32,000 nt of DNA from Burkholderiaceae bacterium (lineage in GTDB: Bacteria > Pseudomonadota > Gammaproteobacteria > Burkholderiales > Burkholderiaceae_B): NCBI GenBank assembly GCA_965234315.1, contig OZ248330.1, positions 3,704,688 to 3,736,687 of the forward strand. Direction: 5' to 3'. Position 1 is the stretch's first letter, and each line of letters opens with the position of its first letter. Of this stretch, positions 2,773-18,125 are shown piece after piece. The translations under genes and the position numbers were made by a program. The notes below the pieces were generated by a model. It was not told the DNA's origin, ran no database searches, and saw nothing but the letters and a program-made list of their open reading frames with translations.

Positions 2773-4197
2773 ATGGATATCGAGGCAACTACCGTGAACC
2801 TTCTCAGCGCAACAGCAATTGAACTCGCCCAAGCCTATCGCGCCCGAACGCTCTCGCCAGTTGAAGCGACCAAAGCCATTCTAAAGGCCATCCCTGATTT
2901 CGAAAGTCTCAATGCTTTTTGTCACCTGAATCCAGAACTAGCGCTGAACGCAGCCCGTGCCTCTGAGCAACGCTACAACGAAGGCGCACCGCTTTCGGGT
3001 TTGGATGGGGTACCCATCGGCATCAAAGATTTGCTCGTCACAAAAGGCATGCCCACAAGACGAGGGTCGCTGACAACCTCGGCCGACGATCCCTGCGACG
3101 CGGATGCGCCGGCGGTGGCACGCTTGCGCGAGGCCGGCGCGGTGATCCTAGGCAAAACAACAACGCCAGAATTTGGCTGGAAAGGTATCACTGATTCTGC
3201 GCTTGCAGGTACAACAAGAAACCCTTGGAAGCCCACTCATACACCCGGCGGTTCTAGCGGTGGCTCTGCTGTGCAGGTTGCTTGCGGCCTAGGCCCCATC
3301 TCTATCGGCACGGATGGTGCCGGTTCGATTCGCATCCCATCAAGCTACACCGGAGTCTTTGGTCATAAGGCAAGTTATGGTCGAGTACCCGCCTGGCCCG
3401 CAAGTCAGGTCGGCACGCTTGCCAATATCGGCCCCATGACCAGAACGGTCGCCGACGCGGCGCTCACCTTGTCGATTATTTCAAAATGGGATGCCAGAGA
3501 CTGGTACGCGTTACCCCAGCAAGAGATGAATTGGGCTGATTTGCCTGGCACAGGGCTCAAGGGTCTGCGCATTGCCTACAGCCCCGACTTAGGCTTTGGC
3601 GGGGTCGACCCCGACGTCACTGGGCTTGTCAAAGCAGCCGTTGAAAAAATGGTTGCACTCGGTGCACACGTTACTGAAATCACCCCACCCATTGGCGACA
3701 TGAATGACACCATTGATGTGCTGTGGCAGTCGGGCTGTGCGTATGGTCAACGCCATATGACTGAAGCACAACTGAATGTCTTAGAGCCTGGGCTGCGCGA
3801 AGCGGCTGATCGAGGCCGTGCCTACACCTTGCCGCAATATTTGAAAGCGGTCGAAGAGCGCAGTGCGTTTGGTGCACGCATGCGTGAGTTTCATACTAAC
3901 TGGGATCTGCTTGTGCTGCCCACCATGCCGGGCACCGCATTTGAAGTCAATCAACTCGGCCCCAAACAGGCAGACGGCTCAATTGGAAGCGCCTGGCGCA
4001 TCTGGAATCCTTTTTGTTATCTGTTCAATCTGACCATGCAACCCGCGGCGAGCCTGCCTTGCGGGTTTACGGCTAAAGGATTGCCGGTTGGCTTGCAAGT
4101 GGTTGGGCGCATGCACGACGACCTCACCGTACTCAGAGCCTGCGCCGCGCTAGAGCCCCATGTGTCGCCGCTGAAGCTTGCGCCGCGGCCGAACTGA
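2773..4197 (+). CDS. Amidase-signature family amidase (GatA-like)
   Basis: 474-aa ORF with the GIKDL lysine region and the GGSSGGSA / GTDGAGSIRIPS amidase-signature block. Confidence 0.85.
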   Translation: MDIEATTVNLLSATAIELAQAYRARTLSPVEATKAILKAIPDFESLNAFCHLNPELALNAARASEQRYNEGAPLSGLDGVPIGIKDLLVTKGMPTRRGSLTTSADDPCDADAPAVARLREAGAVILGKTTTPEFGWKGITDSALAGTTRNPWKPTHTPGGSSGGSAVQVACGLGPISIGTDGAGSIRIPSSYTGVFGHKASYGRVPAWPASQVGTLANIGPMTRTVADAALTLSIISKWDARDWYALPQQEMNWADLPGTGLKGLRIAYSPDLGFGGVDPDVTGLVKAAVEKMVALGAHVTEITPPIGDMNDTIDVLWQSGCAYGQRHMTEAQLNVLEPGLREAADRGRAYTLPQYLKAVEERSAFGARMREFHTNWDLLVLPTMPGTAFEVNQLGPKQADGSIGSAWRIWNPFCYLFNLTMQPAASLPCGFTAKGLPVGLQVVGRMHDDLTVLRACAALEPHVSPLKLAPRPN

Positions 4198-4230: not shown

Positions 4231-4632
4231 TCAAACTTCCCAATCTTCGATTAGTAAGCCTTGGACTCTACTGAATTCGCCTGTATTGTGGGTGATCAGA
4301 GTTGCTTTATTGGCGCGTGCAATTGCGGCTATCAACAAGTCATTCGCCCCGATCAAATTGCCTTGGGTGGTAAGGTCTGCGCGAATCTGTGCGTAATGTT
4401 CAGCGGCGTTATCGTCAAACTCAAAACTACGTAACGGCGAAAATAGTTTTTGTAGTAATTGGTAATTACTTTCTTTTTGCTCGCTGCGTAGCGCACCAAA
4501 CAAAAGCTCAGCCTTCACCACGCTGCATAGCGCAATATCCTCAGGACGAAGTTGCATAATGTGGCTACGCACAGTGAGGTTTTTACGCTGCCATAACTGA
4601 ATGCAGGCGTTGGTATCGAGCAGGTACGTCAA
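4231..4632 (-). CDS. vapC: PIN-domain type II toxin VapC
   Basis: 133 aa. It starts M.YLLDTN and has later acidic residues typical of PIN nucleases. Its ATG overlaps the upstream antitoxin stop by 4 nt (ATGA). Confidence 0.85.
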   Translation of the reverse strand: MTYLLDTNACIQLWQRKNLTVRSHIMQLRPEDIALCSVVKAELLFGALRSEQKESNYQLLQKLFSPLRSFEFDDNAAEHYAQIRADLTTQGNLIGANDLLIAAIARANKATLITHNTGEFSRVQGLLIEDWEV

Positions 4633-4859
4633 TTAAAGCTCTGTCTTGTTTCGAGGTTTAATTCTGAGGGCCTTGTTTGTGACTCGCCTTGCCAAGCATC
4701 AAACAGCTCAAAGTAGCCTGCCGGCCACTGGTTTTGTACACCTGTTTCGCGCTTAATAATCTCTGCTAAATATTTAGACAGTGTTAACTTCGCTCGCTTT
4801 GCTTGAATGCGTATTTGCGCTTCGATTTCGTCTGGCACGTAAAAATGTAGCTGTGACAT
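4629..4859 (-). CDS. vapB: Type II antitoxin, ribbon-helix-helix-like (VapB-type partner of VapC)
   Basis: 76 aa. The N-terminal strand-helix-helix pattern is LHFYVPDEIEAQIRIQAKRAKLTLSKYLAEIIKRE. It is translationally coupled to vapC. Confidence 0.7.
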   Translation of the reverse strand: MSQLHFYVPDEIEAQIRIQAKRAKLTLSKYLAEIIKRETGVQNQWPAGYFELFDAWQGESQTRPSELNLETRQSFN

Positions 4860-4872
4860 GGCTCAATCCTCA

Positions 4873-4919
4873 GTGTATGTGGCATATGTGGTGTATGTGG
4901 TGTATGTGCATACTATGTG
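4873..4919. repeat. Tandem 9-bp repeats (GTGTATGTG / GCATATGTG x4 plus a degenerate fifth unit) directly upstream of vapB; putative operator/promoter
   Basis: Read directly: gtgtatgtg gcatatgtg gtgtatgtg gtgtatgtg catactatgtg. They lie 14-60 nt upstream of the vapB ATG (4859). Confidence 0.6.
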
Positions 4920-4993
4920 CAAAACATTTAAATGTCAATGCCCACAGCCGAAACCCACTGTTTTTTTCAAATTTCTGATTTTATTGATAATTT

Positions 4994-5038
4994 TGGTGGG
5001 CGGTACAAGTTTCGAACTTGTGACCCCTGCCGTGTGAA
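4994..5038 (-). repeat. Displaced 3' half of tRNA-Val (left att repeat of the island)
   Basis: Gap-free alignment to 17983-18027 with 37/45 identical, including a perfect 17-nt block at 5022-5038 that matches 18011-18027. It retains a foldable T-arm (ACAAG/TTCGAAA/CTTGT), the ACCGCCC acceptor strand and CCA. Confidence 0.8.
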
Positions 5039-5096
5039 TACTTCGAACTTAAATATAAACTGCAATATATATGGATAAAAAGCACGTTTTTTAAAA

Positions 5097-5130
5097 GTAG
5101 TACAAAAAAGTAGTACACACTTGACCTACT
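5097..5130. repeat. Putative integrase arm-type sites, left arm: 2 x GTAGTACA direct (5097, 5110) plus an inverted partial copy (5125-5130)
   Basis: The same block architecture recurs at 17884-17926. It lies 59 nt inside the left att repeat. Confidence 0.55.
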
Positions 5131-5318
5131 AAAAATATAATATTCAAGTGCTTTTTCATAGCGCAAATCGATTTTTTAATAACCAGCAAACCTCTGCTTC
5201 GCTTATTCGTCTTTCTTAAGTTTTACTAGCCCATACAGCCAACCCTCTTAAAGTTAACTGATTCATATGTTTGCTCTCTGCTTGCCCCCACTGTTTACGC
5301 CAACCTAAACACGAAACG

Positions 5319-5349
5319 ATCGCAACCAGCTAATGCTGCTGGTTGCGAT
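5319..5349 (-). terminator. Probable rho-independent terminator for the minus-strand operon ending at 5489
   Basis: Perfect 12-bp stem ATCGCAACCAGC / GCTGGTTGCGAT with a 7-nt loop. On the minus strand it is followed by a moderately T-rich tract (CGTTTCGTGTTT). Confidence 0.45.
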
Positions 5350-5472
5350 ATTGGGCTGACAACTTTGCATGTGCTTGATGGCGTTAGATACTGGTAGACA
5401 AGCACGACGAAGGCTATAGACTGAAAGTAGCGACTAAAATTTGTGTAGCCGCCAGCTTGCAATGCAATCCAA

Positions 5473-5492
5473 CGTCACCTAAGTTACGTTAC
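5473..5492. repeat. Copy of the island near-palindromic site (CGTCACCTAAGTTACGTTAC), same orientation as the 13138 copy
   Basis: 18/20 identical to the reverse complement of 14053-14072 (CGTTACCTAAGTAACGTTAC), or 20/24 with flanks. It overlaps the stop codon of CDS 5489..5938. Confidence 0.6.
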
Positions 5493-5938
5493 CCAACACC
5501 CCACTGCTTGCGTAAAGCCATGCCTGTGTACGGTCGCACTGGTTGCTGTGGCATCAGCTTGGTCTTAGCTGCGCTGGGCAGCTGTGCGACAGGCGATGCG
5601 TTAGGCATAGGTGGACGCACTTGAGATTGAGCTGGAACTGGCACTGACTGCTGTGCTGGCGCAGGTGTTTTGTTGCTCACAGCCATATTCGCAGCTGTCG
5701 CAGTATTTTTGGGCTTAGGCGGCATACGGGGTGCTGGTGGTGCTGAACGTGGGCTAGACGCTGTTTTCGTGCGTTTGCTACGTGGCTTTTTACTTGCCTT
5801 CAATCGCTCTTGCCGCTCTTGCTCTTTTTGTTCAGCAGCTTCATCAGCAATTGCAGTCCACGTGCTGTCGATAATTCGCCGTAGCAAACCCAATTGTTCG
5901 TCCGCATCAGTAAATTCTCTTAGTCGCATTGTCATCAC
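5489..5938 (-). CDS. Hypothetical protein with a short structured N-terminus and a long Pro/Ala/Ser/Lys-rich tail
   Basis: 149-aa ORF. AGGTGA is placed 5-6 nt before the fourth codon, so the likely start is ATG 5929 (MRLREFTDADEQLGLL...). It is the last gene of the minus-strand operon. No family recognised. Confidence 0.5.
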   Translation of the reverse strand: MMTMRLREFTDADEQLGLLRRIIDSTWTAIADEAAEQKEQERQERLKASKKPRSKRTKTASSPRSAPPAPRMPPKPKNTATAANMAVSNKTPAPAQQSVPVPAQSQVRPPMPNASPVAQLPSAAKTKLMPQQPVRPYTGMALRKQWGVG

Positions 5939-6013
5939 CTTTAGTTATATTTATAGATGACGACATGCAGCTAACTGACGACAATTTATAGATAATGCTA
6001 AGCGCAACTGCGA

Positions 6014-6211
6014 CTACTTTTGTATTACGCTTTTCACGTAGCAGCGTCGCTGTCCACCAAACATAGCCTCAACCATTGCACGTGCTTGGCTCATGCCTGA
6101 CGCCTGCACATCCATTTGCAGATTGTTTACAGTGGTGTTGCTTTGAAAAGCACTTGAATCCGTTGGATTTGGATCTGTATTGAGTTCGTATTGCACTGTG
6201 TATGTTTGCAT
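6014..6211 (-). CDS. Hypothetical 65-aa protein
   Basis: Its ATG (6211-6209) abuts the stop (6214-6212) of the preceding gene fragment, which suggests translational coupling. No family recognised. Confidence 0.5.
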   Translation of the reverse strand: MQTYTVQYELNTDPNPTDSSAFQSNTTVNNLQMDVQASGMSQARAMVEAMFGGQRRCYVKSVIQK

Positions 6212-6544
6212 TTATTTCTGCCGCTCTTGTTGCCGTTGAAAGCCTTTTAGTTCTGCCAGGTCTTTAGCGTTAACTTTGGAGTGTTGTAACGTAAATGCAC
6301 TTTTCTCATCAGTTAATCCTTTCAGCGCAATAATTTTTCCATGTCGATCCATTGCCTCTTGCATGTCAATTATTAGCTCTAAGTTAGTACTCAAACTACC
6401 TAGTATGCCTGTCCATCGCTCAATATTAGTATCCCTCCAAATCTCATATAAATAATTCCGAAACAGATCATTTAATTGATCCATATCGTCGAAACTATTG
6501 CTTGTTACAAGAGCTATGTATTTTCTAACTTCCTGTATTCCTAC
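6212..6544 (-). pseudogene. 3' fragment of the IS21-interrupted gene for a 246-aa N-terminally membrane-anchored protein
   Basis: Track ORF 6212..6607 starts inside the IS. From 6544 downward it reads VGIQEVRKY.... Removing the IS and one target-duplication copy joins it in frame to 9426..9012 (...DGESVG|IQEVRKY...). Confidence 0.8.
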
Positions 6545-6616
6545 TGTTAATTTGCGCTGAATCCTGACCCAGGATTTGCATCTAATTTTGACCCACCCAG
6601 TTTTCAAAATTCTAGG

Positions 6617-7393
6617 TCAATTTGTCACTGTTACGGGCTTTTTTCTCTCCTTTTTAGCTTGAGTTGAACTGTTCTTGAATCGATAGCTTTCATTTCCTGT
6701 CTCCACGATGTGGCAGTGATGGGTTAGCCGATCAAGCAGCGCAGTCGTCATCTTGGCATCGCCGAACACAGACGCCCATTCGGTAAAACTTAAATTAGTC
6801 GTAATGATGACACTGGTTCTTTCGTAGAGCTTGCTGAGTAGATGGAATAGCAAGGCGCCACCGTTCTGACTAAATGGTAAATATCCCAGCTCATCCAGAA
6901 TGACTAGGTCGGCATACATCAACCGTAGTGCAAGTTGCCCTGCTTTACCTGCAGCCTTCTCTTGCTCAAGTGCGTTTACCAATTCAATCGTGGAGAAGAA
7001 ACGTACACGCTGGCGATGGTGTTCAATGGCTTGAACGCCAATTGCAGTGGCTAGGTGTGTTTTACCGGTACCTGGTCCACCAACCAACACAACATTTTGA
7101 GACGATTCAATGAACTCACATCTGTGTAATTGTCGGATGAGCGCTTCGCTTGCATCGCTGCAACCAAAGTCAAACCCGGCAATGTCACGGTAGGCCGGGA
7201 ATCTTGCAGACTTCATTTGATACGCTTGTGACCGCACTTCACGCTCTGCGATCTCCGCCTTTAGTAATCCAGACAGCACCAGCGCAGCTGACTTGTACGC
7301 CGGTGAGTCCTGAGACGCTAAATCCTCTAGCGCTTGAGCCATGCCGTGTAGCTTTAACTTCTTTAGCATCTCTGCCATGACATTAGGCTGCAT
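6617..7393 (-). CDS. istB: IS21-family helper ATPase IstB
   Basis: Walker [11 protein letters not shown] and Walker [10 protein letters not shown], with DnaA/AAA-like IstB architecture. The likely start is ATG 7393 or 7378, overlapping the istA stop. Confidence 0.9.
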
Positions 7394-8897
7394 AGTGCTG
7401 CTCCCTGAGTGTGTCATAACGACCAACGTTGGCTTGTGGTTCGATGTTTAGAACGATGGCTGCCGGTGCCTCAATCGGTGGCACCGGTGCTGCGTCTAGC
7501 AGTCGGCTTAGAATATTTAGAATCGTTTGCTTTGAAGGCACACCGGCCTCTAGTGCCAACTCGACAGCTGTCAGAACTGCTTGTTCATCATGCAATAGAA
7601 CGAGCGCCAGGACCTCAACCATCTCGCGGTCACCACCGGGGTGCTTGATAAGCCGCGCCTGAAGCCGTTTGAAGGCCTCTGGAAACTCAGCAAAGGGTGC
7701 GCCGTTGCGCAAAGCTCCGGGCTTACGCTGCAGAACAGCCAAATAGTGCCGCCAATCGTAATAAGTAAATCCCGGACTGGCGTGGCTTCGGTTGATGTGT
7801 CGCTCATGTTCTGCAATGACTTGCCCCTCGGCAACAAACACCAAACGCCTCGGATAGACCTTCAAACTTACAGCTCGATTAGCAAACGAGGCGGGAACGC
7901 TGTAGCGATTGCGCTCGAAGGTTACTAAGCAAGTTGGTGAGACCCGTTTGGTGTTCTCTACATAGCCATCAAAGGGTTGCCCAACCTGCATCAAGTGTGG
8001 TCGCTCATCAGACCAGATGTTCCAGATCGTATCGTCCTGTTCGGGGTGTTGGATTTGCTGCCACAGCAACACGCACTGATCGGCCAACCAATCATTAAGT
8101 GCGTCAAGGGAACCAAACGGTGGAACCGTTTGCCATAGCCGGTGCCGGCTGTCACGAACGTTCTTCTCAATCTGTCCCTTCTCCCAACCCGAGGCGGGAT
8201 TACAGAACTCAGCATCGAAGAGGTAATGGCTGACCATGGCACTAAATTTGGCATTGACCTCACGCACTTTACCGGGCTTGACCCGATCAACGGCGGTCTT
8301 CATGTTGTCGTAGATGCCTCGCCTAGGGATTCCGCCCCAAGCCACAAAGGCATGGTGGTGAGCATCGAACAGCATCTCGTGCGTTTGAAGGAGATACGCC
8401 CTTAGAAAGAACGCCCGACTGTGGCTTAGTTTGAACTGGGCGACCTGCAGTTTGGTGCGCTCGCCGTTGATCACGGCCCAGTCTTCGCTCCAGTCGAACT
8501 GGAACGCTTCGCCCGGGCTAAAGCGCAGCGGCACAAAGGTGCCGAGGGATGCCGTACGCTCTCGCTCCCGCTCTTCTTGTCGCCACTTTCTAGCAAAGGC
8601 GGCCACCCGATCGTATGAACCAGTAAATCCTAAAGCACAGAGGTCTGCGTGGATTTGTTTTAAGGTGCGCCGTTGCTTGCGCGAACGAGAGGTCTCTTTC
8701 TTTAGCCACTCGCTTAGCTTGGCCGCAAAACCATCCAACTTGCTCGGACTTTGCCGTGACGGGTAGATCGGCAGCACCGCGTCGTTGCGTAAATACCGTC
8801 GGACGGTGTTTCGGGATATGCCAAGCCGGCTGGCGATCTCACGCAGAGAAACCTTGTCGCGCAGATGCCAGCGTCGTATTACGGTCAATATTGCCAT
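7383..8897 (-). CDS. istA: IS21-family transposase IstA
   Basis: N-terminal HTH ([20 protein letters not shown]), a DDE-type core, and about 500 aa length. The likely start is ATG 8897 ([10 protein letters not shown]...) within ORF 7383..8927. Confidence 0.9.
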
Positions 8898-9011
8898 GTC
8901 AATCACTCCAAATCTCCTGCTCAGCACCCCGAGCAGGTCAGTGTTCTACATGGGTCAATATTCGATGCAAATTACCCCTCTAAGTGGGTCAGTTTTCGGT
9001 GCAAATTAACA

Positions 9012-9426
9012 TTCCTACGCTTTCTCCATCAAACGTTTGATACGCACGGGTAGCTTTAACTAGACTGTCGTTGCTCAGAAATATATTTTCAATTTCCACA
9101 TTAGTTATTTTTTCCCAAGGATAGACTGCGTACTTGCTTGGGCGTGGATACAAATTGTTACCGGCAGCGTCTTCGCCTAAACATATCTCTCTAAATGCCC
9201 TAGCTTGTACATTTCGATTATCTACATCAAAACCAGCTATTTTGAGATCAGCCAAATGCTTTTTAAATTGAGCCTCAACTTGTTTGTCAAAGTCACCCCA
9301 AGCCTTTTTCGTAAAGTCTTTGTTGTATCCCTCTGCTTTTTCTTTACGCTTTCTTAAATAAATTACAACAACACAGCCCACTAGAAACAAAACCGAAATG
9401 ATTAGCTTTATGTTTTCAAAATCCAT
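9012..9426 (-). pseudogene. 5' fragment (codons 1-138) of the IS21-interrupted membrane-anchored protein gene
   Basis: GGAGG lies 5 nt upstream of ATG 9426. There is one N-terminal TM helix (IKLIISVLFLVGCVVVIYL). The reading frame runs into the IS and stops after 7 IS-encoded codons (track ORF 8989..9426). Confidence 0.8.
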
Positions 9427-9506
9427 ACTGTCCTCCGATTTTTCTTTGCGCTTGACACCATGTAAGCTGACGCCTACTTTGCGAATGCGTACAGATAATT
9501 AATAAA

Positions 9507-9671
9507 TTATTTTGTTGTTTTAAAAAGCGATCCGTTCCTTACGTCTAATCGAAAGTACTGACGGCAACTTGAACATTGAACAGGTGTTGTTCCATTGTTT
9601 GATGCAGACTTAAATGTGCCTGATGCACTGCAGTGGGGGCATGAAAGGACAAACTGTGGGGTCGAAGACAT
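9507..9671 (-). CDS. Unlisted 54-aa zinc-ribbon protein (CPHC...CSSC, MJ0042-type-like)
   Basis: My codon-by-codon translation gives MSSTPQFVLSCPHCSASGTFKSASNNGTTPVQCSSCRQYFRLDVRNGSLFKTTK*. AGGAG lies 7 nt upstream of the ATG. It is the first gene of the minus-strand operon, divergent from the XRE gene. It falls below the 60-aa cutoff of the track. Confidence 0.55.
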   Translation of the reverse strand: MSSTPQFVLSCPHCSASGTFKSASNNGTTPVQCSSCRQYFRLDVRNGSLFKTTK

Positions 9672-9683
9672 TCTTGCGCTCCT

Positions 9684-9698
9684 AGTTGTTACCTACGT
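9684..9698. repeat. Partial copy of the island site (AGTTGTTACCTAcgt) in the XRE / zinc-ribbon divergent control region
   Basis: The 12 nt AGTTGTTACCTA are identical to 13134-13145. The second half-site is degenerate. Confidence 0.45.
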
Positions 9699-9716
9699 TT
9701 ATTTGCAACATCGCTG

Positions 9717-9735
9717 ATATCCTAAATTGGGATAT
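9717..9735. promoter_or_regulatory. Palindrome ATATCC-N7-GGATAT 27 nt upstream of the XRE start; possible operator
   Basis: Read directly. It overlaps a TATACT -10-like hexamer. Function is inferred from position only. Confidence 0.3.
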
Positions 9736-9761
9736 ACTAGAACGGGATTCAAAATGTTGCA

Positions 9762-9992
9762 ATGTCCAAGTACATTCAACGTGAATCTACACTTCGTAAG
9801 CTATTGCGGGCTGGAAGATTGCGTTCTAATTTGAGACAAGTAGACGTTGCAAAGACGCTTGGTAAACCACAGTCGTACATTGCTAAGGTTGAAAACGGCG
9901 AAAGGCAATTGAGCTTTATAGAAGCGTTAGATTTTTGCGACGCCATCAAGTTAGATGCACACGAACTGGTGGACAAGCTAACTAAAGAATAA
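9762..9992 (+). CDS. XRE-family (Cro/CI-type) helix-turn-helix transcriptional regulator
   Basis: 76 aa. The LRQVDVAKTLGKPQSYIAKVENGERQLSFIE pattern is the canonical XRE HTH. Confidence 0.8.
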   Translation: MSKYIQRESTLRKLLRAGRLRSNLRQVDVAKTLGKPQSYIAKVENGERQLSFIEALDFCDAIKLDAHELVDKLTKE

Positions 9993-10010
9993 GCCTTAGC
10001 CAATCTAAAC

Positions 10011-10454
10011 CTACTTGCCAAATGCCTTGCGTGTACGCAAACTTGCTTCAGCAATCGCATCGTCCAGTTCGCCGTTAGCGGCAGCAGCCATCAGCACCTT
10101 CAGCGTATTAATCAATTCAGCTGTGTTGTTGAGCTCCACAGCATTCTTGCCACCTTTAGCCAGCGTCAGTGTGCTTGCGCCATACTTCACAGCCAAATTG
10201 ATTTTGCCAGTTTCTGCAGTCCAGTACCACTCACGCACACGCCGCTGCACTTCCACAACAGTTTTTGTACCTGTTGCTGCGTCCACAACTGTACGCAATC
10301 GTTTAGCCGTGTAAACGTCACCTGTCTGCTGTGCGTTACACAACTCCAATTGCTCTTGCAGTTTTGCACACAGCTTCATGCGCCGTTGTACCGCTGGACT
10401 AGCTGCACGACTTTTACGTGCTGCTACGAACTTCAAGTTTGCCAATGCACTCAT
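10011..10454 (-). CDS. Hypothetical protein (147 aa), of a kind I recall from genomic islands of other proteobacteria
   Basis: AGGAG lies 6 nt upstream of the ATG. The layout is a basic N-terminus (KFVAARKSRAASPAVQRR), a central beta-rich region, and a C-terminal helix. The family name is not confidently recalled. Confidence 0.6.
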   Translation of the reverse strand: MSALANLKFVAARKSRAASPAVQRRMKLCAKLQEQLELCNAQQTGDVYTAKRLRTVVDAATGTKTVVEVQRRVREWYWTAETGKINLAVKYGASTLTLAKGGKNAVELNNTAELINTLKVLMAAAANGELDDAIAEASLRTRKAFGK

Positions 10455-10604
10455 TTCCTGCTCCTGTGTATGTTTAAGCTACATACACAGTCTGCTGCCT
10501 GTCTTTTGCGATGTCGATGGCTTTTGGCAAGATTTTTTATGAATGCTTATGGAAAGATATGGAAAGGCAATAAAAAATTGGGTTTTATTAGGTGAAGACT
10601 AAAT

Positions 10605-11198
10605 ATGTGTATGACACAACATACACATTTGCAGCCACTTCAGCACAGCTACAGGCAATTCATTTACCCATATGCACAGCACATCACATTTGCGGTGACA
10701 CTGACAATGAAAATGCGGGCAAAGGTACGTGTTAAGCGATTTGATAATTATGGTGATGAATACTACGAATACTGGGTTACGTTGGACGATGAAAAAATAC
10801 GCAGCACAATTTGCAGATTTACAGCCAGACTCACAGCATTGCTTTATGGCAATCATGCACGACACAAAAACAAACGGGCGTGGGCAACGCCGCTGCTTAT
10901 AGTTGCTGTAGAGGGGCGCAATACACACAAGCGTCAGCACTTGCATTTGGCATTAGGCAACATACCTGATGCAAAACGCACACACATTGAATCGTTTATT
11001 AAGCAGGCTTGGGCTGATTGTGATTTTGGTTACAAGCAGACTGAAACAAAGTTGCTATTTGATGGTTATGGCTGGTTGGACTACATGACAAAAGAAGTGG
11101 GATATACGGACAACGATGCGCTAGACGTTGCATCCAGCACTATCCCAAAATTTATACAAGACAGCATTTGTACAGAAAGTCGCTTGCTCACTGCATAA
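10605..11198 (+). CDS. Candidate HUH-superfamily endonuclease (rolling-circle Rep / inovirus Gp2-like motif order)
   Basis: 197 aa with AGGTGA 9 nt upstream. The motif order is ITFAVTLT (motif-1-like), QHLHLALG (H-u-H) and WLDYMTKE (Y-x-x-K), with spacing typical of small RCR initiators. This is motif-level evidence only. Confidence 0.5.
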   Translation: MCMTQHTHLQPLQHSYRQFIYPYAQHITFAVTLTMKMRAKVRVKRFDNYGDEYYEYWVTLDDEKIRSTICRFTARLTALLYGNHARHKNKRAWATPLLIVAVEGRNTHKRQHLHLALGNIPDAKRTHIESFIKQAWADCDFGYKQTETKLLFDGYGWLDYMTKEVGYTDNDALDVASSTIPKFIQDSICTESRLLTA

Positions 11199-11554
11199 AT
11201 TAACAATTAGATTGCACTGCGATTGAGGTTGGAGACCTTTAAATACTATTGCTACGACTGCAATATTCAAATAGCTAACAATCAAGCTAATCAGTAAAAC
11301 TAGCCAGCACCTAAACCATATACGAATACATGATGACTATACAAAGTATAGAAAGCACCAGTTAGCTCACCATCGCAACAACCACAACGCTGTCATCAAG
11401 CTCATCAACTACTTCATCAGCTTGTCGCAGCGTACCCACATGTACTTCAGGCACTAAAAAACAACGAATCGCAGCTAAATACAAATATATGGAAATACAC
11501 AGAACGTTATATTTTTTGAGCAGAACGAACTGAAGCAGTTGAATTCATTGAGGA

Positions 11555-12232
11555 ATGTACTTGAACACAAGAATAAAAAAAAACATCGCAAAGAAAAAAA
11601 ATAATACTTATGCTTTTAATACAGCGAAATATTGGATTAAAGGCAAAAAAAACGCAATGAAGCAAGCGAAAACACTTACAGCACCTGAAATACGCAGAGT
11701 GCTGGACTACATAGCAACACGCAAGTACGCAGCCAGAAACAGAGCCATGTTGTTGATGACGCACTTGGCTGGCATGCGTGTTGGTGAGGTGGCAAGTTTG
11801 CGTTACAGAGACGTGATCAATACAGATCACACAGTACGTGCTGAGATACTGTTGAGTGCAGAGCAGACGAAAGGCAATGAAGCACGTACTGTGTACATAA
11901 ACGAACGACTACGCAAAGAGCTCACCACTTACATTCAGTCACAACGCTTCAGCACTCACCCACGTACTAAATTATTTGGCACACAGAAACGCCAGATCGA
12001 CGGGTTTAGCGCCAACTCACTAGCCCAGTACTTCCATCACTTGTACAAAGGCGCAGGCATCGCTGGTGCCAGCAGTCACAGCGGTCGTCGCAGCTTTATC
12101 ACCAACTTAGCCGGCAAAGGCGTTGGGGTGCGTGTGATTATGGGCTTGAGCGGGCATCGTGCGCTGAGCAGCGTACAGCACTACATTGACTGTAGCGATG
12201 ACATGAAACGGCGTGCTGTGGAATTGGTATAA
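11555..12232 (+). CDS. Small tyrosine recombinase with only the catalytic domain (FimB/FimE-sized)
   Basis: Catalytic boxes are AGMRVGEVASLRYRDV (Arg), SSHSGRRSF (H-x-x-R) and LSGHRALSSVQHYI (His...Tyr). The probable start is ATG 11657 (MKQAKTLTAPEIRRVL..., 191 aa), which parallels the FimB N-terminus. There is no N-terminal core-binding domain. Confidence 0.8.
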   Translation: MYLNTRIKKNIAKKKNNTYAFNTAKYWIKGKKNAMKQAKTLTAPEIRRVLDYIATRKYAARNRAMLLMTHLAGMRVGEVASLRYRDVINTDHTVRAEILLSAEQTKGNEARTVYINERLRKELTTYIQSQRFSTHPRTKLFGTQKRQIDGFSANSLAQYFHHLYKGAGIAGASSHSGRRSFITNLAGKGVGVRVIMGLSGHRALSSVQHYIDCSDDMKRRAVELV

Positions 12233-12234
12233 AA

Positions 12235-12260
12235 AAAGCGCAGCAATTACGCTGCGCTTT
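12235..12260. terminator. Bidirectional rho-independent terminator between the convergent genes
   Basis: Stem AAAGCGCAGC / GCTGCGCTTT with a 6-nt loop, flanked by an A-run on the left and a T-run on the right. Confidence 0.6.
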
Positions 12261-12275
12261 TCCTTAATGCCCTAC

Positions 12276-13115
12276 TTATGCAGCATCCGCATCTTTAGCT
12301 GCTTTGTTATCGTTTGCAGCCTTCGCAAATCTACTTACCTCCGCTTTTAGCTTGTTCTCAGCCGCATATTCCTGCTTAATTTTCTCATAGTGCTGCATCT
12401 CACCGTCTTTCATAAAATACTCCAAACCCGCTTTATAGTTTGCCAGCCTTGCAAGTAGCGTTTGTTCTAGCTCACTATCCATCGGCAAAATATCTACCAC
12501 GTTGTATTTGCTGCCATCGTGTGTACAAACCATATATCTAAATTTGCACCTATTTGCTGCGTCATGCATACGTGCACGTAGTTTTTCATCAATTTCAAAT
12601 GTCGCTAGTTTTTGCTGCCCCTCATCTGCAAGTAACTTCGCTACAAACGCACCCATATGCATATTGCCAACGTTATTTTTTTCCTCTTCTGCACGTTCTA
12701 CTTCACCCACACGCAACTTATCAATGCCGCCGTTAGCTTCAATGTAATCAGCTAGCCCGTCTGCACTAATACTATTGTTTATTGCTTGTTGCAGTACACG
12801 TTTGTAAGTAAAAATTGTTTTTCTATGTATTTTACGCAGCACTAATCGCACAATCACACCCAAGTCGCCTGTCTTAGCAGTTGTTTTAACTGTGTACGTT
12901 TCTTTAAGTACTTTACGCATTGCAAGTATTACTGCATCTTTGTCGCTGCGTTCAAGCACACCTTCTGCGTATCGCAAAATTTCTGCCAACATCGCATACA
13001 GCTCCTTGTTTGCTCTGTGCACATAAGTATCTACATATTGCTTGTACTGTTCGTGCACAACATTGCTGCTATCAATTACTGTCTTGTACTTCTCAACGTT
13101 CGCTTTCTTAGCCAT
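12276..13115 (-). CDS. Hypothetical protein (279 aa), helical with an acidic/Lys-rich C-terminus
   Basis: AAGGAAG RBS lies 5 nt upstream of the ATG. No family recognised. The 16-bp site lies 22 nt upstream of the start. Confidence 0.6.
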   Translation of the reverse strand: MAKKANVEKYKTVIDSSNVVHEQYKQYVDTYVHRANKELYAMLAEILRYAEGVLERSDKDAVILAMRKVLKETYTVKTTAKTGDLGVIVRLVLRKIHRKTIFTYKRVLQQAINNSISADGLADYIEANGGIDKLRVGEVERAEEEKNNVGNMHMGAFVAKLLADEGQQKLATFEIDEKLRARMHDAANRCKFRYMVCTHDGSKYNVVDILPMDSELEQTLLARLANYKAGLEYFMKDGEMQHYEKIKQEYAAENKLKAEVSRFAKAANDNKAAKDADAA

Positions 13116-13137
13116 TTTTACTTCCTTATTTAAAGTT

Positions 13138-13153
13138 GTTACCTAAGTAACGT
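13138..13153. repeat. 16-bp site GTTACCTAAGTAACGT (left member of the perfect inverted pair)
   Basis: Exact reverse complement of 14057-14072. It is internally a 14-bp near-palindrome, GTTAC-CTAA-GTAAC. Confidence 0.85.
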
Positions 13154-13265
13154 AGGGTTTGAAATATGCAAAAAACACTTTGTTTTCAGCATGTATCCAT
13201 TGTATTTTTTAGTGATTTTTGCTGATAATATCTGTTTGTAAACAATTGATAGTGTTAGCATTTAT

Positions 13266-14057
13266 ATGAACAAAATAACCACAGCTGTCAAGCAAGCCAA
13301 TTCAAAACGACGTGCATTTGCCACACGTCGCTATCCACTGTTTGGACGGGGCGTGTACAGCGATGCCAGCCCGCCTGCTAGCGTCATCAACAGTCCGTTT
13401 TATTGGTGGTTTAAGTTTCTACAACTTAACGATGAGTATGCAAAGGCTGTCGCAGGCAAAACCAGCCGTGTGTCACGTCGGGTTGCGAAGGATTTTGGTG
13501 ACGTGCGGAACACGGACTTTAAAAGCTGGTGGTACGCACACGTGGATTTGTTTGCTGAGCCGCCCAGCGATTACAAGATGGTTGTGGCAACCACAGCGGA
13601 TGAGCTAGTGGCGTTTGGTGACAGCACAGCCGTCAACTTGGTGGTGCCATTAACTTGGACTAATGTGGGGCTCAAACGCAGATTTGCTGAGATTATTGAC
13701 AAGCTGGTGGCTAAGACGCCAGCTGGAGTTCGTGCACACACAGCCAGTGAGGCCAAGTACAGGCTGGGACGCAAATGGAGCACAGTGGGCTTTCAACATG
13801 CGTACGATGTTTACGTTGCCAGACAAGCTGCGCAGGCAGAGATGGCAGAAACAGGCAAGAAAGTGGCTTGGGCTGATGTTGCTATACGTGCGGGATTGCC
13901 AGCTGCCAAGCGGATACAGAGAGGAGCTAGTGCGTTGGACACTGGGGAGGCCAGACGGGTTTTAACTATTTTGGCTGTCAGGCACTATCGGCAAGCTCAA
14001 GCCTTTATTGCTGCCAGTACCAGCACAGCGTTTCCTGCTGCTAAATCCATCAAGTAA
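13266..14057 (+). CDS. Hypothetical protein (263 aa), basic, Trp-rich N-terminal region (SPFYWWFKFLQLNDEY)
   Basis: Long ORF with coherent composition. It is divergent from 12276..13115. No family confidently recognised. Confidence 0.6.
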   Translation: MNKITTAVKQANSKRRAFATRRYPLFGRGVYSDASPPASVINSPFYWWFKFLQLNDEYAKAVAGKTSRVSRRVAKDFGDVRNTDFKSWWYAHVDLFAEPPSDYKMVVATTADELVAFGDSTAVNLVVPLTWTNVGLKRRFAEIIDKLVAKTPAGVRAHTASEAKYRLGRKWSTVGFQHAYDVYVARQAAQAEMAETGKKVAWADVAIRAGLPAAKRIQRGASALDTGEARRVLTILAVRHYRQAQAFIAASTSTAFPAAKSIK

Positions 14058-14072
14058 CGTTACTTAGGTAAC
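14057..14072. repeat. 16-bp site ACGTTACTTAGGTAAC (right member of the perfect inverted pair)
   Basis: Exact reverse complement of 13138-13153. It overlaps the last base of the TAA stop of CDS 13266..14057. Confidence 0.85.
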
Positions 14073-14107
14073 GATTGACTGCGGCTTTAATGTGACGCAT
14101 CGACGGA

Positions 14108-14599
14108 CTAACTACGAGGAACAATTACACCTGCTTGTGTCAACTCTTCTACCCGCTTGTCGTATCTAACACCGTGTTGGTTTTTATCTATTCCCCAAAC
14201 ATTTTCATTTAGTAATCGCTCTTCAGCAAGTTGCGCCGCACTACTCTTGCTTTGAGCATTTGCATGACTACGTATGTGCTCAACTGTCAAAACTAATTGC
14301 GGACCTTGTTCATCTACGGTCGTTTTCATTCTGTAACCTTCACTTATATTTTCGCTGAAAGATCGCCTCACAATTTGACCATCTGCGTTATAAGTTCTGC
14401 TGCTTTCATACTGGCGCTGAGCATCTAACAAATTTGCAAGCTCTTGCTTTGTTTTTGCACTCAGCGCCAAATACTGTTGTGCATCAACAAAATTTGTATG
14501 CTCTTGTGCTGTTTGTTCGCTGAACGCAGTGGCGCTAGTTTTTCTTGTAGAGCAAAACAGTTCTTGCCATTTATTTTTTAACCACTTGCTCAGTTGCAT
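14108..14599 (-). CDS. Hypothetical protein (163 aa)
   Basis: ORF 68 nt downstream of the Sel1 gene on the same strand. No signal peptide and no recognised motifs. Confidence 0.5.
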   Translation of the reverse strand: MQLSKWLKNKWQELFCSTRKTSATAFSEQTAQEHTNFVDAQQYLALSAKTKQELANLLDAQRQYESSRTYNADGQIVRRSFSENISEGYRMKTTVDEQGPQLVLTVEHIRSHANAQSKSSAAQLAEERLLNENVWGIDKNQHGVRYDKRVEELTQAGVIVPRS

Positions 14600-14667
14600 T
14601 CTCTATCCCCATCTGTTCATCAGCGGATTACTTGCGACTATGTAACTTAATGTTTAGTTTTACAACT

Positions 14668-16440
14668 TCAATCGCACTTTTTGAAGTTTTGTGCTTGGCA
14701 TTCTCTTGCAAGTTTTTGTGCCTCTGCTATTTGTTGCGGAGTCATTTTTTTTGCAACAATCATGCGATTTTTTGCTGCTTGGGCGTCGCCTTTTACTGCC
14801 GCTAAATTGAACCACATGTGCGCCCGCACGTAATCTTGTACAACACCTTTTCCGTCGCCGTACATAATGCCAATATTTAACTGAGCGCTTGCATTGCCTG
14901 CTTCTGCTGCCAACTTATACCAACGCATTGCTTCAGCGTAGTCTTGTACAACACCCTGTCCGTAGTTGTACATATATCCAATATTTGCATAAGCAACTGC
15001 TTGGCCTTGTGCTGCTGCCAACTTATACCAACGCATGGCTTCGGCGTAATCTTGCACAACACCTTTTTGGTTGTAGTACGTTGCACCAATGTTTAACTGA
15101 GCAACTGCATCACCCTGTGCTGCTGCCAGCTTATACCAACGCATGGCTTCAGCGTAGTCTTGTACAACACCCTGTCCGTTGTCATACATATATCCAATCG
15201 CAAACTGAGCACTTGCTTGACCTTGCGCTGCTGCCAATTTGTACCAACGCATGGCTTCAGCGTAGTCTTGTACGACACCCTGTCCGTAGTTGTACATCAC
15301 GCCAATGTTTAACTGAGCAACCGCATCACGCTGTGCTGCTGCCAACTTATACCAACGCATGGCTTCAGCGTAGTCTTGTACGACATTTTGTCCGTTGTTG
15401 TACATTCCGCCAATGTATAACTGAGCACTTGCATTGCCTTGTGTTGCTGCCAACTTATACCAACGCAATGCCTCTTCTACATTTTTGTTTGTCCCTAACC
15501 CTTCTAAATAAATTTTTCCCAAGTTCATTTGCGCAGCTGCGTCTGATTTGTCAGCTGCAAGTTTTGAAAGACGCATGGCTTCTGTGTAATTTTTTTCAAC
15601 CCCAGTACCTGTTGTGTAATTGAGAGCCAAATTACTTTGTGCAACTACAGAACCCCGCTCCGCCGCTAACTTGTACCGTCTATTCGCCTCTTTGTAGTCT
15701 TGCTTTACTCCCAACCCAGTAAAATACATATAGCCAATTGCAGATTGCGCATTTGGATCATCTTTCTCTGCCAATTTAAATAAACGCAATGCCTCCGTAA
15801 AATCTTTTCCAACACCCTCACCTTTTGCGTACATGTATCCCAACATTGTTTTGGCAGCTGCGTCTCCAGTCTCCGCAACCAGCCCAAACCATAGCATTGC
15901 CTCCCCAACATCTTTTTTTGTTCCAATGCCATCATAGTTATAGGCACCTACTTTTAGTTGAGCACTATAGTTACCCTTTTCCGCTGCTGCCAGGTATAAG
16001 TTGTAGGCCTCTTTGTCATCTTTCTTTAGCCCACCTTCTCCAGTTGCATACATGTCTGCCAAGTGTATTGATGCAGCAGCATCTCCGTTATTTGCAGCCA
16101 CTCTAAGCCATCGCACCGCTTCTACATTATTTTTTTCTGTACCATTTCCCCTGTAATAATTTATTCCCAAATTTGACTGCGCTGTTGTATTACCTTGCTC
16201 AGCTGCAAGTTTATATAACCTGTTCGCTTCTTTATAGTCCTGCTGTACTCCTATCCCGTTAAAGTACATATAACCAAGTGCTGACTGCGAATTTGCGTCG
16301 CCCAATTCAGTTGCAGTACGCCAATGCTTGATCGCCGCTGCGTAATCTTTTTTGTTGTAAGCAGCATGCCCATCCTCAAAACCGCTAGCCCACGCAGCAG
16401 AACTAAACATCAACAGCAGCGCAATCAATATTTTATTCAT
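14668..16440 (-). CDS. Secreted Sel1-like repeat (SLR/TPR-like) protein with about 15 repeats
   Basis: Signal peptide MNKILIALLLMFSSAAWA. It carries iterated 36-aa units of the form A..WY.KAA.QG.A.AQ..LG.MY..G.GV..D. AGGA RBS is present. Its start is 13 nt after the integrase stop. Confidence 0.9.
   Translation of the reverse strand: MNKILIALLLMFSSAAWASGFEDGHAAYNKKDYAAAIKHWRTATELGDANSQSALGYMYFNGIGVQQDYKEANRLYKLAAEQGNTTAQSNLGINYYRGNGTEKNNVEAVRWLRVAANNGDAAASIHLADMYATGEGGLKKDDKEAYNLYLAAAEKGNYSAQLKVGAYNYDGIGTKKDVGEAMLWFGLVAETGDAAAKTMLGYMYAKGEGVGKDFTEALRLFKLAEKDDPNAQSAIGYMYFTGLGVKQDYKEANRRYKLAAERGSVVAQSNLALNYTTGTGVEKNYTEAMRLSKLAADKSDAAAQMNLGKIYLEGLGTNKNVEEALRWYKLAATQGNASAQLYIGGMYNNGQNVVQDYAEAMRWYKLAAAQRDAVAQLNIGVMYNYGQGVVQDYAEAMRWYKLAAAQGQASAQFAIGYMYDNGQGVVQDYAEAMRWYKLAAAQGDAVAQLNIGATYYNQKGVVQDYAEAMRWYKLAAAQGQAVAYANIGYMYNYGQGVVQDYAEAMRWYKLAAEAGNASAQLNIGIMYGDGKGVVQDYVRAHMWFNLAAVKGDAQAAKNRMIVAKKMTPQQIAEAQKLARECQAQNFKKCD
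14845..15384. repeat. Five near-identical in-frame 108-bp tandem repeats inside the Sel1 gene (a sixth, more diverged unit runs to about 15492)
   Basis: The motif CAACTTATACCAACGCAT recurs at exactly 108-bp spacing (e.g. 14911 and 15019). It encodes VVQDYAEAMRWYKLAAAQG.A.AQ.NIG.MY..GQG. Confidence 0.85.
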
Positions 16441-16453
16441 CTCAATCCTTCAT

Positions 16454-17833
16454 TCATTTACCCTGTTCACCATCATAATCTTTACGTTTTCTATGCCGCT
16501 TGCTCTGCAGCATGCCAATATTCATCTCACCGCTTAAGGGCTTAGCGTAAAACCTGTCAATCATCTCCACACTAGTACGTGCGTTTCTTGCCAGCACTAA
16601 AGTATTCACACCCTCACCATACATCAACCTATACATAATACAAGTGTGCCGTAACGAATAAAGTGTTCTTGCTTCACCATTGCCGCCTATAGCCAATCCC
16701 GTATCCCACATCAATATTTCAAATTGTCGCTGTAGCTGTTTAAGTGCGTAATCTCTCTGCTTTTCGCCATATTCGGGCAAAAATACATAGTCATCGTCTT
16801 TGGCCATATTGCCATGCTCTGCGTGATATTTTTTATGCAGCAGGTACACATGGACTGCATATGGCATTGTTGTAATGGGATCGCTATGATTTTTAGTTGG
16901 CGGTATGCGTAAACGCAAATACTTGTAGTCAGCATCAATCACATCAATGTGTTTGTGCTTCATAAATTTAATATCAGTCGGTCGTATGTAGCTAGACGTC
17001 ATAAACACAATCAGCCTTCGCAAGTCTTCCGTCATAGTTACTCTACGCATCAAACTGCCCAGCTTTGTTTTTTTACTTTCTTTGTCTATGTATTGTGTCT
17101 GCGTTTCACCTTTGTTATTTTTATACTTACGAACCTCTATCGTTTTTCCTAAATATCTCTGTGCAGCATTCCACACCTTTCTATATTCGCCAGTCGTAAA
17201 CCATCCTCTTGCTTTATCTTTCACACGCACACTGGGAAACTCTGGCACTGACTGGATGAGCTTGTTACGATGTGCAAATGACAGCACTTTGCGAACTAAC
17301 CGCATGTAAGCACTGACGGTAGAAGTGCTTAGCTGTTGTTTACTCAGTTCGCTTAAATAATCGCCCAACACAGCGTAATCAACATCACTAACATTTAGAT
17401 GTCTAAAGTACGGCAGAACACTTTTGTCAAAACGGTACTTGGTATTGTCGTACGTAATTTGCGTCAGCTCACCACGTGCCAACTTGCCCTTCTCTTCCTT
17501 CAATAGCTCTTGTGTGCAAGTCTCAAAATTCGCCTTGCCACCAGCAGTAATTCCGTGCCTCAAGTTATACGTAACGGTGTCGTAAAAATCTTTAGCAAAA
17601 GCCAGTGCTTTGCGCTTGTCTGTTTGCTTAGTTGTTTTACGAATTGTCTTGCCACTCACATACAACCGCACCCACCAGTACTTGCTAGCTGGCAATGTGT
17701 ATATGAAAAGTGTTTGTGGAAAGCCAGGTACGTACGCTGTCTCCGTAGCAAGCGTTCTATGTCTTGTCTGCGTAGCAGTGCTTTTCGTAGCTGTTTTAGT
17801 CTTTTTCATCACAATCATCGCCTTGTAACCCAC
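16454..17833 (-). CDS. int: Tyrosine integrase (phage/island type with an N-terminal arm-binding-like domain)
   Basis: 459-aa ORF with C-terminal LYSLRHTCIMY (H-x-x-R region) and MIDRFYAKP (catalytic Tyr region). It lies 150 nt from the tRNA-Val 3' end. Confidence 0.9.
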   Translation of the reverse strand: MGYKAMIVMKKTKTATKSTATQTRHRTLATETAYVPGFPQTLFIYTLPASKYWWVRLYVSGKTIRKTTKQTDKRKALAFAKDFYDTVTYNLRHGITAGGKANFETCTQELLKEEKGKLARGELTQITYDNTKYRFDKSVLPYFRHLNVSDVDYAVLGDYLSELSKQQLSTSTVSAYMRLVRKVLSFAHRNKLIQSVPEFPSVRVKDKARGWFTTGEYRKVWNAAQRYLGKTIEVRKYKNNKGETQTQYIDKESKKTKLGSLMRRVTMTEDLRRLIVFMTSSYIRPTDIKFMKHKHIDVIDADYKYLRLRIPPTKNHSDPITTMPYAVHVYLLHKKYHAEHGNMAKDDDYVFLPEYGEKQRDYALKQLQRQFEILMWDTGLAIGGNGEARTLYSLRHTCIMYRLMYGEGVNTLVLARNARTSVEMIDRFYAKPLSGEMNIGMLQSKRHRKRKDYDGEQGK

Positions 17834-17883
17834 ATGCTACATAGCTTTAGGCGATTTTGCGATGAAAAGATAAGGAAAAAACA

Positions 17884-17926
17884 GTAGTACAAAATGAAAA
17901 AAGTAGTACACGCATTGTGCACTACT
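17884..17926. repeat. Putative integrase arm-type sites, right arm: 2 x GTAGTACA direct (17884, 17903) plus an inverted AGTAGTGC (17919-17926)
   Basis: Same architecture as 5097-5130. It lies 57 nt inside the right att repeat, between int and the tRNA. Confidence 0.55.
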
Positions 17927-17982
17927 TTTCTCTTTTAAAAAAATCCAAATCATCTGCAAGTGATTGATTTTACAGAGGAATT

Positions 17983-18057
17983 TGGTAGGCGGTATTGGTT
18001 TCGAACCAACGACCCCTGCCGTGTGAAGGCAGTGCTCTACCACTGAGCTAACCGCCC
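17983..18057 (-). tRNA. tRNA-Val: tRNA-Val (anticodon CAC), 75 nt with encoded CCA
   Basis: Hand-folded cloverleaf: GGGCGGT-TA-GCTC-AGTGGTA-GAGC-A-CTGCC-TTCACAC-GGCAG-GGGTC-GTTGG-TTCGAAA-CCAAT-ACCGCCT-A-CCA. It has U33, A37 and A73. There is a G1-U72 wobble. Confidence 0.9.
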
Positions 18058-18125
18058 GGTTTGATGCGCACTTTTGGTGGCTGGTTAAAATCTAGAAAAT
18101 TTTCTAGGAACCAAATTATACACAG

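Follow-up and report, generated by a model that had tools for sequence, protein, structure and literature searches.

A genomic island integrated at a tRNA-Val gene of a Burkholderiaceae bacterium (GenBank assembly GCA_965234315.1, contig OZ248330.1) carries a family of short palindromes with the core (C)GTTAC-YKMR-GTAAC(G), in which inverted GTTAC and GTAAC arms stand about four central bases over 14-16 bp. The stretch analyzed, referred to here as the window, comprises 32,000 nucleotides (positions 3,704,688 to 3,736,687 of the contig). The motif family is real, conserved and non-random, follows clear rules of placement at gene borders, and has a specific protein partner, in that it co-occurs exclusively with the gene for P279, an orphan protein of 279 amino acids (aa). 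Orphan protein and short palindrome form a tightly linked pair at the borders of modules. How the pair works is a matter of proposal; we tentatively read the palindromes as cognate sites of P279 that would act as autoregulatory or boundary elements, a reading that we hold to be quite possible while stopping short of calling it probable.

The palindrome family in the window and in related islands

Four copies of the motif are found in the window, all of them inside the island (~5038-17965): two strong (13137-13152 and 14058-14073), one degenerate (5473-5488) and one apparent relic of a half-site (9684-9695). Read directly, 5473-5492 is CGTCACCTAAGTTACGTTAC, 13138-13153 is GTTACCTAAGTAACGT and 9684-9695 is AGTTGTTACCTA, the last being the same as 13134-13145; in addition, 13138-13153 forms a perfect 16-nt inverted repeat with 14057-14072. 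A preceding interpretation made from the letters of this DNA (the sequence-only reading) had proposed such a near-palindromic family, and all four of its sequences are present, the only slip being that its fourth site, given as 14053-14072, is one base off, as the reverse complement quoted for it belongs to 14054-14073. The 14-mer GTTACCTAAGTAAC, searched with up to two mismatches, matches three loci in the window, where shuffled sequence leads one to expect 0.10. A scoring matrix trained only on sites from other loci, and compared with 50 shuffles, returned 25.1 for the copy at 14058, 23.7 for that at 13137 and 16.1 for that at 5473, the shuffles having a maximum of 16.0 and a mean of 10.2; the first two copies are therefore unequivocal and the third, which has one mismatch in each arm, is degenerate. 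Neither the 14-mer search nor the matrix scan found a copy in the 19 kb of window flanks outside the island. The center is CTAA in all three sites, and sites A and D (Table 1), each read in the direction of its own gene, both have the form G-TAA-CGTWACTTAGGTRACG, with 18 of 20 positions identical.

The half-site at 9684 is not a matrix match. It repeats 12 nt of the site at 13138, diverging from it at the palindrome center, and the chance of such identity to one given 12-mer in 32 kb is about 0.004 (2 x 32000 / 4^12, calculated by hand). Because the 4-nt left flank of the 13138 site is also present, the half-site looks like a relic copy that was broken at the center of the palindrome.

About 60 loci (designated by L numbers) were gathered via P279 and via P263, a protein of 263 aa encoded next to it. 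The motif search over these homologous islands found the exact form GTTAC-N4-GTAAC 23 times in 153 kb from 15 non-redundant loci with a close P279 homolog, where 0.15 copies are expected, and once in 299 kb from 37 related loci without P279 (locus-level Fisher p = 1.6e-5). A weight matrix built from 28 sites assigns about 2 bits of information to both 5-bp arms and about 1 bit to the 4-bp center, with low to nil information beyond 16 bp. The arms are accordingly nearly invariant, and the center follows YKMR (CTAA, TTAA, TGCA, CGCA and others; TTAA in all four sites of L078). The repeat unit extends over 14-22 bp, and its flanks are unrelated.

Placement is strongly non-random. Although 79% of the DNA is coding, 22 of the 23 exact sites are noncoding (P = 1.7e-14), and the exception lies in a spurious open reading frame (ORF). 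The association with gene borders that the sequence-only reading described holds in the window, where site A encloses the stop codon of the 149-aa gene (5489..5938) and site D that of the 263-aa gene (13266..14057), both genes facing outward, and site C ends 22 nt upstream of the P279 ATG. Across the related loci four positions recur. The first precedes the start codon of P279, or that of an accessory gene belonging to the same leftward array, by 12-22 nt (window, L028 with two sites, L030 with two, L074, L077, L078, L081 and L086 with three); for P279 starts specifically, the distance is 16-22 nt in L028, L030, L074, L078, L081 and L086. The second is on or just past the P263 stop codon (window, L028, L068/69, L075, L077, L078, L080, L086), and the third some 50-60 nt past the P279 stop, beyond its intrinsic terminator (L035-37, L068/69), L036 resembling L035 and L068 in this respect. 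Other 3' borders make up the fourth, including both sides of the restriction cargo in L078 and L086. In L028 two convergent stop codons stand 7 nt apart, and one site takes up all of this gap. Both L028 and L084 have sites in their island part and none in their non-island part.

P279 as the candidate partner of the palindromes

All loci with a close P279 homolog and enough sequence carry the motif. Two P279 loci fetched later as a test, L084 and L086, have one and four sites, respectively, at the expected positions, and L035, which has both P279 and a site, differs from its sisters L032 and L034, which have neither, by an indel that comprises site, terminator and P279. Other island proteins were considered as partners and rejected. 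The motif is polyphyletic on the P263 tree, and close relatives of P263 lack sites; the small tyrosine recombinase of 225 aa is found at 45-66% identity in more than 20 motif-less related loci, and L068, with six sites, has no gene for it in 19.7 kb; the HUH-like protein of 197 aa (P197) is encoded in L023, L040, L043, L056, L060 and L062 without the motif; and no homolog of the XRE-family protein was detected in other motif-bearing loci. L052 and L053, at first sight exceptions lacking P279, reflect an ORF-calling artifact, since the gene is present on the other strand.

Other subfamilies of P279 have different recurring palindromes at the equivalent positions, for instance at the P263 stop and where the P279 operon has its 3' end. 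TTGTCC-N8-GGACAA recurs in L025, L052 and L053, and L050 has the 23-bp palindrome AAGCGTCTCGTTACGAGACGCTT six times. In several lineages the P279-family gene is followed, within the same operon, by a gene for an AAA+ ATPase of 230-270 aa that resembles clamp-loader subunits (RFC small subunit, DnaX) most closely, suggesting that P279 operates in the context of a DNA transaction; the window lineage is without this partner. Residues Y40 and Y104 of P279 are conserved in every aligned member of the family.

The anatomy of the site, with two 5-bp half-sites, a semi-conserved 4-bp center and nothing else, is of the type bound by dimeric proteins. Because P279 has no recognizable fold, that it binds the motif is an inference, as is what binding would do. 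P279 would presumably be dimeric, with one GTTAC arm contacted by each subunit. The transcription unit of P279 itself always has a site beside it, and in the window this is the leader site ahead of its ATG, some 40 nt downstream of promoter-like hexamers; P279 bound there could block elongation and so throttle its own expression, an autoregulation by roadblock. The further copies at the borders of units (3' ends of the 263-aa and 149-aa genes, convergent gaps, gaps between cistrons or around cargo) may, when occupied by P279, serve as roadblocks, boundaries or insulators in place of an intrinsic terminator. Such a function would be exerted at the level of DNA rather than RNA, since sites in L035, L036 and L068 lie beyond the P279 terminator and mismatched copies do not keep their pairing; action as RNA at all is unlikely. 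Of the options offered in the sequence-only reading, an operator regulon of one island regulator and centromere-like sites share the element that fits best, namely that one island protein binds the sites, while the protein that tracks the motif is P279 and not XRE.

Several points weigh against such a role for P279. About half of the sites mark 3' ends or lie in convergent gaps, places in which one would expect no promoter, and the 5' sites are about 40 nt downstream of the predicted promoter instead of over it, so that the regulatory logic would be unconventional. Co-occurrence could stem from physical linkage, site and P279 gene being parts of a single mobile module, with no binding involved, and the P279-bearing loci represent only about 4-5 independent lineages. 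Homology breaks at the outer edges of sites, detailed below, fit a role in recombination at least as well. P279 has no match in Pfam, NCBIfam, PHROG, PADLOC, PDB sequences or Foldseek searches (PDB, BFVD) and no recognizable DNA-binding domain, and its structural model is only moderate (predicted local distance difference test, pLDDT, 68.5). A weak match to Replitron_HUH (E = 0.0078) was discarded, as it was seen in only 1 of 15 family members.

If P279 does bind the sites, it would represent a novel DNA-binding fold whose target sequence is known and, together with them, a simple model for insulating or co-regulating the swappable modules of a mobile element. The pair lends itself to direct testing with one purified protein and one 16-bp duplex.

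Alternative readings and known systems

Among known systems, the palindromes appear in their working most like KorB OB or parS sites, and in their bracketing of modules most like dif modules. They are members of neither group, since ParB/KorB, or XerC/D with 28-bp sites, are absent or do not fit.

Taking the sites as joints of recombination or mobility, that is, as ends or crossover sites for the exchange of modules (the P279-P263 pair, accessory genes, defense cargo), is the main rival reading, though it seems rather unlikely to us. In three independent comparisons homology between islands stops close to the outer edge of a site. Homology between the window and L028 ends 3-4 nt beyond site D, and that between L068 and L075 ends 5 nt past the site at the P263 stop. 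In L068 and L069 a shared 3.4-kb block at 92% identity starts 5 nt ahead of the site located 3' of P279, and its left neighbors there differ. Block ends in general are enriched fourfold near sites (20 of 480, against 1.1% expected). Two sites flank accessory genes in L028 and L030, as they do the restriction cargo of L078 and L086; the central sequence is homogeneous within one island, and the half-site at 9684 resembles a copy broken at the center. The enzyme would in this case be P279, possibly with the AAA+ partner of other lineages, or another recombinase. Against this, only 14-16 bp are informative, and known tyrosine and serine recombinase sites are longer: a tyrosine recombinase core has arms of about 11-13 bp and a 6-8-bp overlap, whereas information here resides in arms of 5(-6) bp about a 4-bp center. 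The centers of the two sites that flank one accessory gene differ (ATAG and AGAA in L030, TTAC and CTAA in L028). P279 has no recombinase or nuclease fold, and no enzyme with a recombinase fold tracks the sites, the small recombinase being present in the many motif-less loci noted above. The near-identical metagenome contigs L018-L020 all three have the arrangement of the window, with no rearranged variant among them. Insertions in L028 and L030 moreover duplicate about 120 bp of promoter region, the divergent intergenic region having been copied along with a site beside accessory genes, which suggests homologous exchange between regulatory regions.

One option of the sequence-only reading, an excisable 7.7-kb module delimited by the sites, is unsupported on this evidence if the small recombinase is taken as its enzyme: that recombinase occurs without the motif, the sites are too short, and the partner at 5473 is degenerate. 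Some other enzyme may nevertheless recombine the sites, given that they coincide with module borders and with homology breakpoints between islands. It is conceivable, if clearly improbable, that P279 is itself a new site-specific recombinase or transposition protein without a known fold (with Y40 and Y104, and in some lineages the AAA+ partner), for which the palindromes would serve as module ends when accessory genes and defense cargo are shuffled between the tRNA-integrated islands found in freshwater Betaproteobacteria. Were the sites recombination joints, they would constitute a new module-exchange system for defense genes.

Two systems offer a comparison on this point. In the plasmid dif (pdif) modules of Acinetobacter, short inverted-repeat sites flank accessory modules in varying contexts (PMC6449649, PMC13141974). 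The islands share with them bracketed cargo or accessory genes and homology breaks at the sites; pdif sites, however, are 28 bp long (11 + 6 + 11) and are used by the host XerC/XerD, whereas those described here have 14-16 bp with a 4-bp center and are tracked by an orphan protein, not by a recombinase of the Xer type. Integron attC sites, which IntI recombines, span 55-140 bp and have R''/L''/L'/R' boxes as well as extrahelical bases. They resemble the present sites in being lineage-specific imperfect palindromes at or just past stop codons, with promoter-proximal accessory genes between two sites and a tyrosine recombinase gene near, but differ in size, and the 225-aa recombinase, besides not tracking the motif, reaches 36 bits where the integron-integrase cut-off is 265 bits.

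We consider it very unlikely that the palindromes are centromere-like (parS-type) sites that P279 binds so as to segregate or pair the excised island. KorB OB sites, like those described here, are in some cases near promoters and in others far from them. In the case of RK2, short palindromes dispersed over one mobile element are bound by KorB, which the element itself encodes (PMC11790492). The island is like the KorB-OB and ParB-parS systems in having 13-16-bp palindromes in several copies per element, one of which adjoins the gene of the (proposed) binder; parS, sopC and KorB OB sites likewise are dispersed, with one beside the binder's gene on its 5' or 3' side, and the association of P279 with the motif accords with this. 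Unlike KorB and ParB, P279 is without a ParB/KorB helix-turn-helix or CTPase domain and without a matching fold; the element compared is a plasmid, whereas here it is a tRNA-integrated island, and binding by P279 is only proposed. Searches of the island proteins gave no ParBc, KorB or ParA match, so that both a ParA-type ATPase and a ParB/KorB domain or fold are missing from them. The partner ATPase of other lineages is clamp-loader-like and not ParA-like, and a replication module has not been demonstrated.

The sites might also function as RNA hairpins, either terminators or stem-loops that stabilize mRNA at gene ends, for which there is little likelihood. They are palindromic, are found at 3' ends and in 5' leaders, and in some cases lie between convergent genes that have no other terminator. 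Folding predictions, however, give weak hairpins (mostly -3 to -8 kcal/mol) with no U-tract, against -17.9 kcal/mol and a U-tract for the real terminator of the island; intrinsic terminators were rejected on these folding energies. It is the sequence of the arms, and not just their pairing, that has been kept across lineages despite strong divergence of P263 (40%) and P279 (27-33%), and pairing is broken in imperfect copies (C.T in site A, C.A at 8750 of L068). Several sites are downstream of a good intrinsic terminator, and Rfam 15 yielded only the tRNA-Val in 4800-18200 at E <= 1. Repetitive extragenic palindromic (REP) elements are found genome-wide in their host, are longer and imperfect, and are tied to REP-associated tyrosine transposases (RAYTs) of the HUH/Y1 type. 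They too are palindromes at gene ends and between convergent genes, but the sites described here are confined to the island in all loci with flanks, as judged from 19 kb around the island in the window and from the non-island parts of L028 and L084, and the HUH-like P197 does not track them.

Still less credible is a regulon of operators for XRE or another island regulator. The XRE protein does have a clear helix-turn-helix, and the half-site lies 67 nt upstream of its start. An XRE/Cro operator would be a full palindrome in the regulator's own promoter, with the regulator co-conserved; the XRE control region holds only this half-site, the repeat at 9716-9736 is better placed as an operator, and XRE, as noted, does not accompany the motif elsewhere. 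Least of all can a generic host repeat or chance match be entertained: exact 17-mer matches in unrelated genomes are at chance level (17 in representative genomes, none with island homologs, and hence set aside as chance matches), but the three matches in the window all fall within the island and none in its 19 kb of flanks, L028 and L084 repeat this pattern, and the motif, conserved in different hosts, goes with P279.

The host island and its relatives

The island belongs to a family of tRNA-integrated islands that had not been described before, in freshwater Burkholderiales and their relatives, and a search of the literature on DUF6641 or such islands in Polynucleobacter found nothing relevant. 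Its gene order from left to right is the 149-aa gene, a gene split by an insertion sequence, XRE, DUF6641, the HUH-like 197-aa gene, the 225-aa tyrosine recombinase, P279 (-), P263 (+), a 163-aa gene and a Sel1-repeat gene. Coordinates are collected in Table 1.

Table 1. Features of the window, and coordinates for the P279-AAA+ linkage in other loci (last five rows, numbered within the locus named)
Feature	Coordinates	Strand	Remarks
Island	4976..18057	.	From a copy of a tRNA 3' half (4976-5038) to tRNA-Val (17983-18057); 13 kb
Site A	5473..5492	-	Degenerate; - strand reads G-TAA-CGTAAC-TTAG-GTGACG; holds stop codon of 149-aa gene; near left island end
149-aa gene	5489..5938	-	Homologs in L026, L062, L063
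IS21 element	6545-9011		Inserted in island; inverted repeats 6545-6571 and 8985-9011; istA 7383-8927, istB 6617-7426
Apparent half-site relic	9684..9695	+	AGTTGTTACCTA: left flank, left arm and 3 nt of site C center, no right arm; between IS-disrupted gene and XRE
XRE-family protein	9762-9992		Clear helix-turn-helix
Small tyrosine recombinase, 225 aa	11555..12232	+	Context gene, not tracking the motif
P279, orphan 279-aa protein	12276..13115	-	Proposed palindrome binder
Site C	13137..13152	.	tGTTAC-CTAA-GTAACg; in divergent intergenic region, just before P279 Shine-Dalgarno sequence
Divergent intergenic region	13153..13265	.	Promoter-like hexamers for leftward gene; conserved P263 leader
P263, 263-aa hallmark protein of island family	13266..14057	+	Divergent from P279; variable cargo after it
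Site D	14054..14073	+	Strongest copy, G-TAA-CGTTAC-TTAG-GTAACG; holds stop codon of 263-aa gene; between convergent 263-aa and 163-aa genes
Integrase	16454-17833		
P279-AAA+ linkage, L025	318-1016		
P279-AAA+ linkage, L050	7044-7763		
P279-AAA+ linkage, L027	223-1029		
P279-AAA+ linkage, L065	8040-8756		
P279-AAA+ linkage, L053	8271-8954		

P263 has hundreds of unnamed homologs, mostly from freshwater metagenomes, with others in Polynucleobacter, Limnohabitans and similar genomes. Its AlphaFold2 (AF2) model has a pLDDT of 82.5, and no family, PDB sequence or Foldseek (PDB, BFVD) match was found for it. Viral contigs yielded no P263 homologs, representative genomes no close P279 homologs, and E. 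coli genomes and plasmids no near-identity match to 9400-14700. The family has as its core an integrase, the DUF6641 protein, the small tyrosine recombinase and P263, the last three being conserved in the related loci, where the genes between recombinase and P263 vary, as does the cargo after P263 (type I restriction-modification, MmeI, Mrr, DUF1643, Sel1). Restriction-modification and other cargo is swapped directly after the P263 gene, and this position constitutes a hot spot (14058 onward in the window; L021, L029, L035, L078, L086, L028). It is occupied by type I restriction-modification operons, often 14 nt past the P263 stop, by an MmeI-type enzyme with DUF5655, by a Mrr-like nuclease or by DUF1643, and in the window by the 163-aa gene and the Sel1-repeat protein. 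The Sel1-repeat gene (14668-16440) contains seven tandem 108-bp units (14721-15668), which encode 36-aa Sel1 repeats and are 62-81% identical to the reference unit.

P263 genes lack a Shine-Dalgarno sequence. Upstream of P263 homologs in about 40 loci there is instead a conserved AAAGTGYTAGYAT 4-8 nt before the ATG, present in the window as TGtTAGCAT (13253-13261, in the region 13250-13268), which looks like an extended -10 promoter giving rise to a leaderless mRNA. Orphan copies of this leader are found beside accessory genes in L028, L030, L034 and L035. P279 ends in Ala-Ala, as do the accessory proteins of 162 aa in L028, 177 aa in L030 and 129 aa in L078. A related bidirectional terminator (AGCGCAGC...GCTGCGCT) is located 3' of P279 in the window (12233-12275), in L028 and in L077 (6793-6822), and L028 has a further copy 3' of the 162-aa gene, its two copies being at 2313-2352 and 3405-3440.

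Among the remaining genes of the island, the 197-aa protein (10605-11198) displays the three motifs of HUH rolling-circle Rep proteins, uuTuT (AVTLTM), HUH (HLHLAL) and YxxK (YMTK), which are kept in homologs from six other loci; it matched no database family. An inverted repeat GATATCC-N7-GGATATA at 9716-9736, distinct from the GTTAC palindrome and situated 26-46 nt upstream of the XRE start codon, is a likely candidate for the XRE operator. IS21 splits one island gene, whose N-terminal part is at 8989-9426 and whose C-terminal part is at 6212-6607.

Direct repeats AAAAGTAGTACA(A/C) near both ends of the island (5093-5120 and 17878-17911) are plausibly arm-type binding sites of the integrase. 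The copy of the tRNA 3' half at the left end (4976-5038) is only 79% identical to the 3' half of tRNA-Val (17965-18027), with compensatory differences in the T-arm, as though another tRNA allele had been its source. Just outside the left end (4231-4859), a PIN-domain toxin gene and a small upstream gene with a weak NikA-like (ribbon-helix-helix) match look like a VapBC-like pair, which is followed by three 9-bp tandem repeats GTGTATGTG (4873-4908).

Some features of individual relatives bear mention. L077, a second member of the island family, comes from the sequencing run that also yielded L019, a contig identical to the window; the P279 paralog of L077 is P0124, and another IS21 splits a P263-like gene there (648-2947). 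Repeated palindromes in L066 and L073 proved to be ordinary bidirectional terminators and were left out of the family. At gene ends of L068 a further palindrome (CTAGTTTGCAAACTAG), unrelated to the first, occurs six times (3454, 3987, 4813, 17324, 18797 and 19204); it may be some other type of repeat, of the host or of the island.

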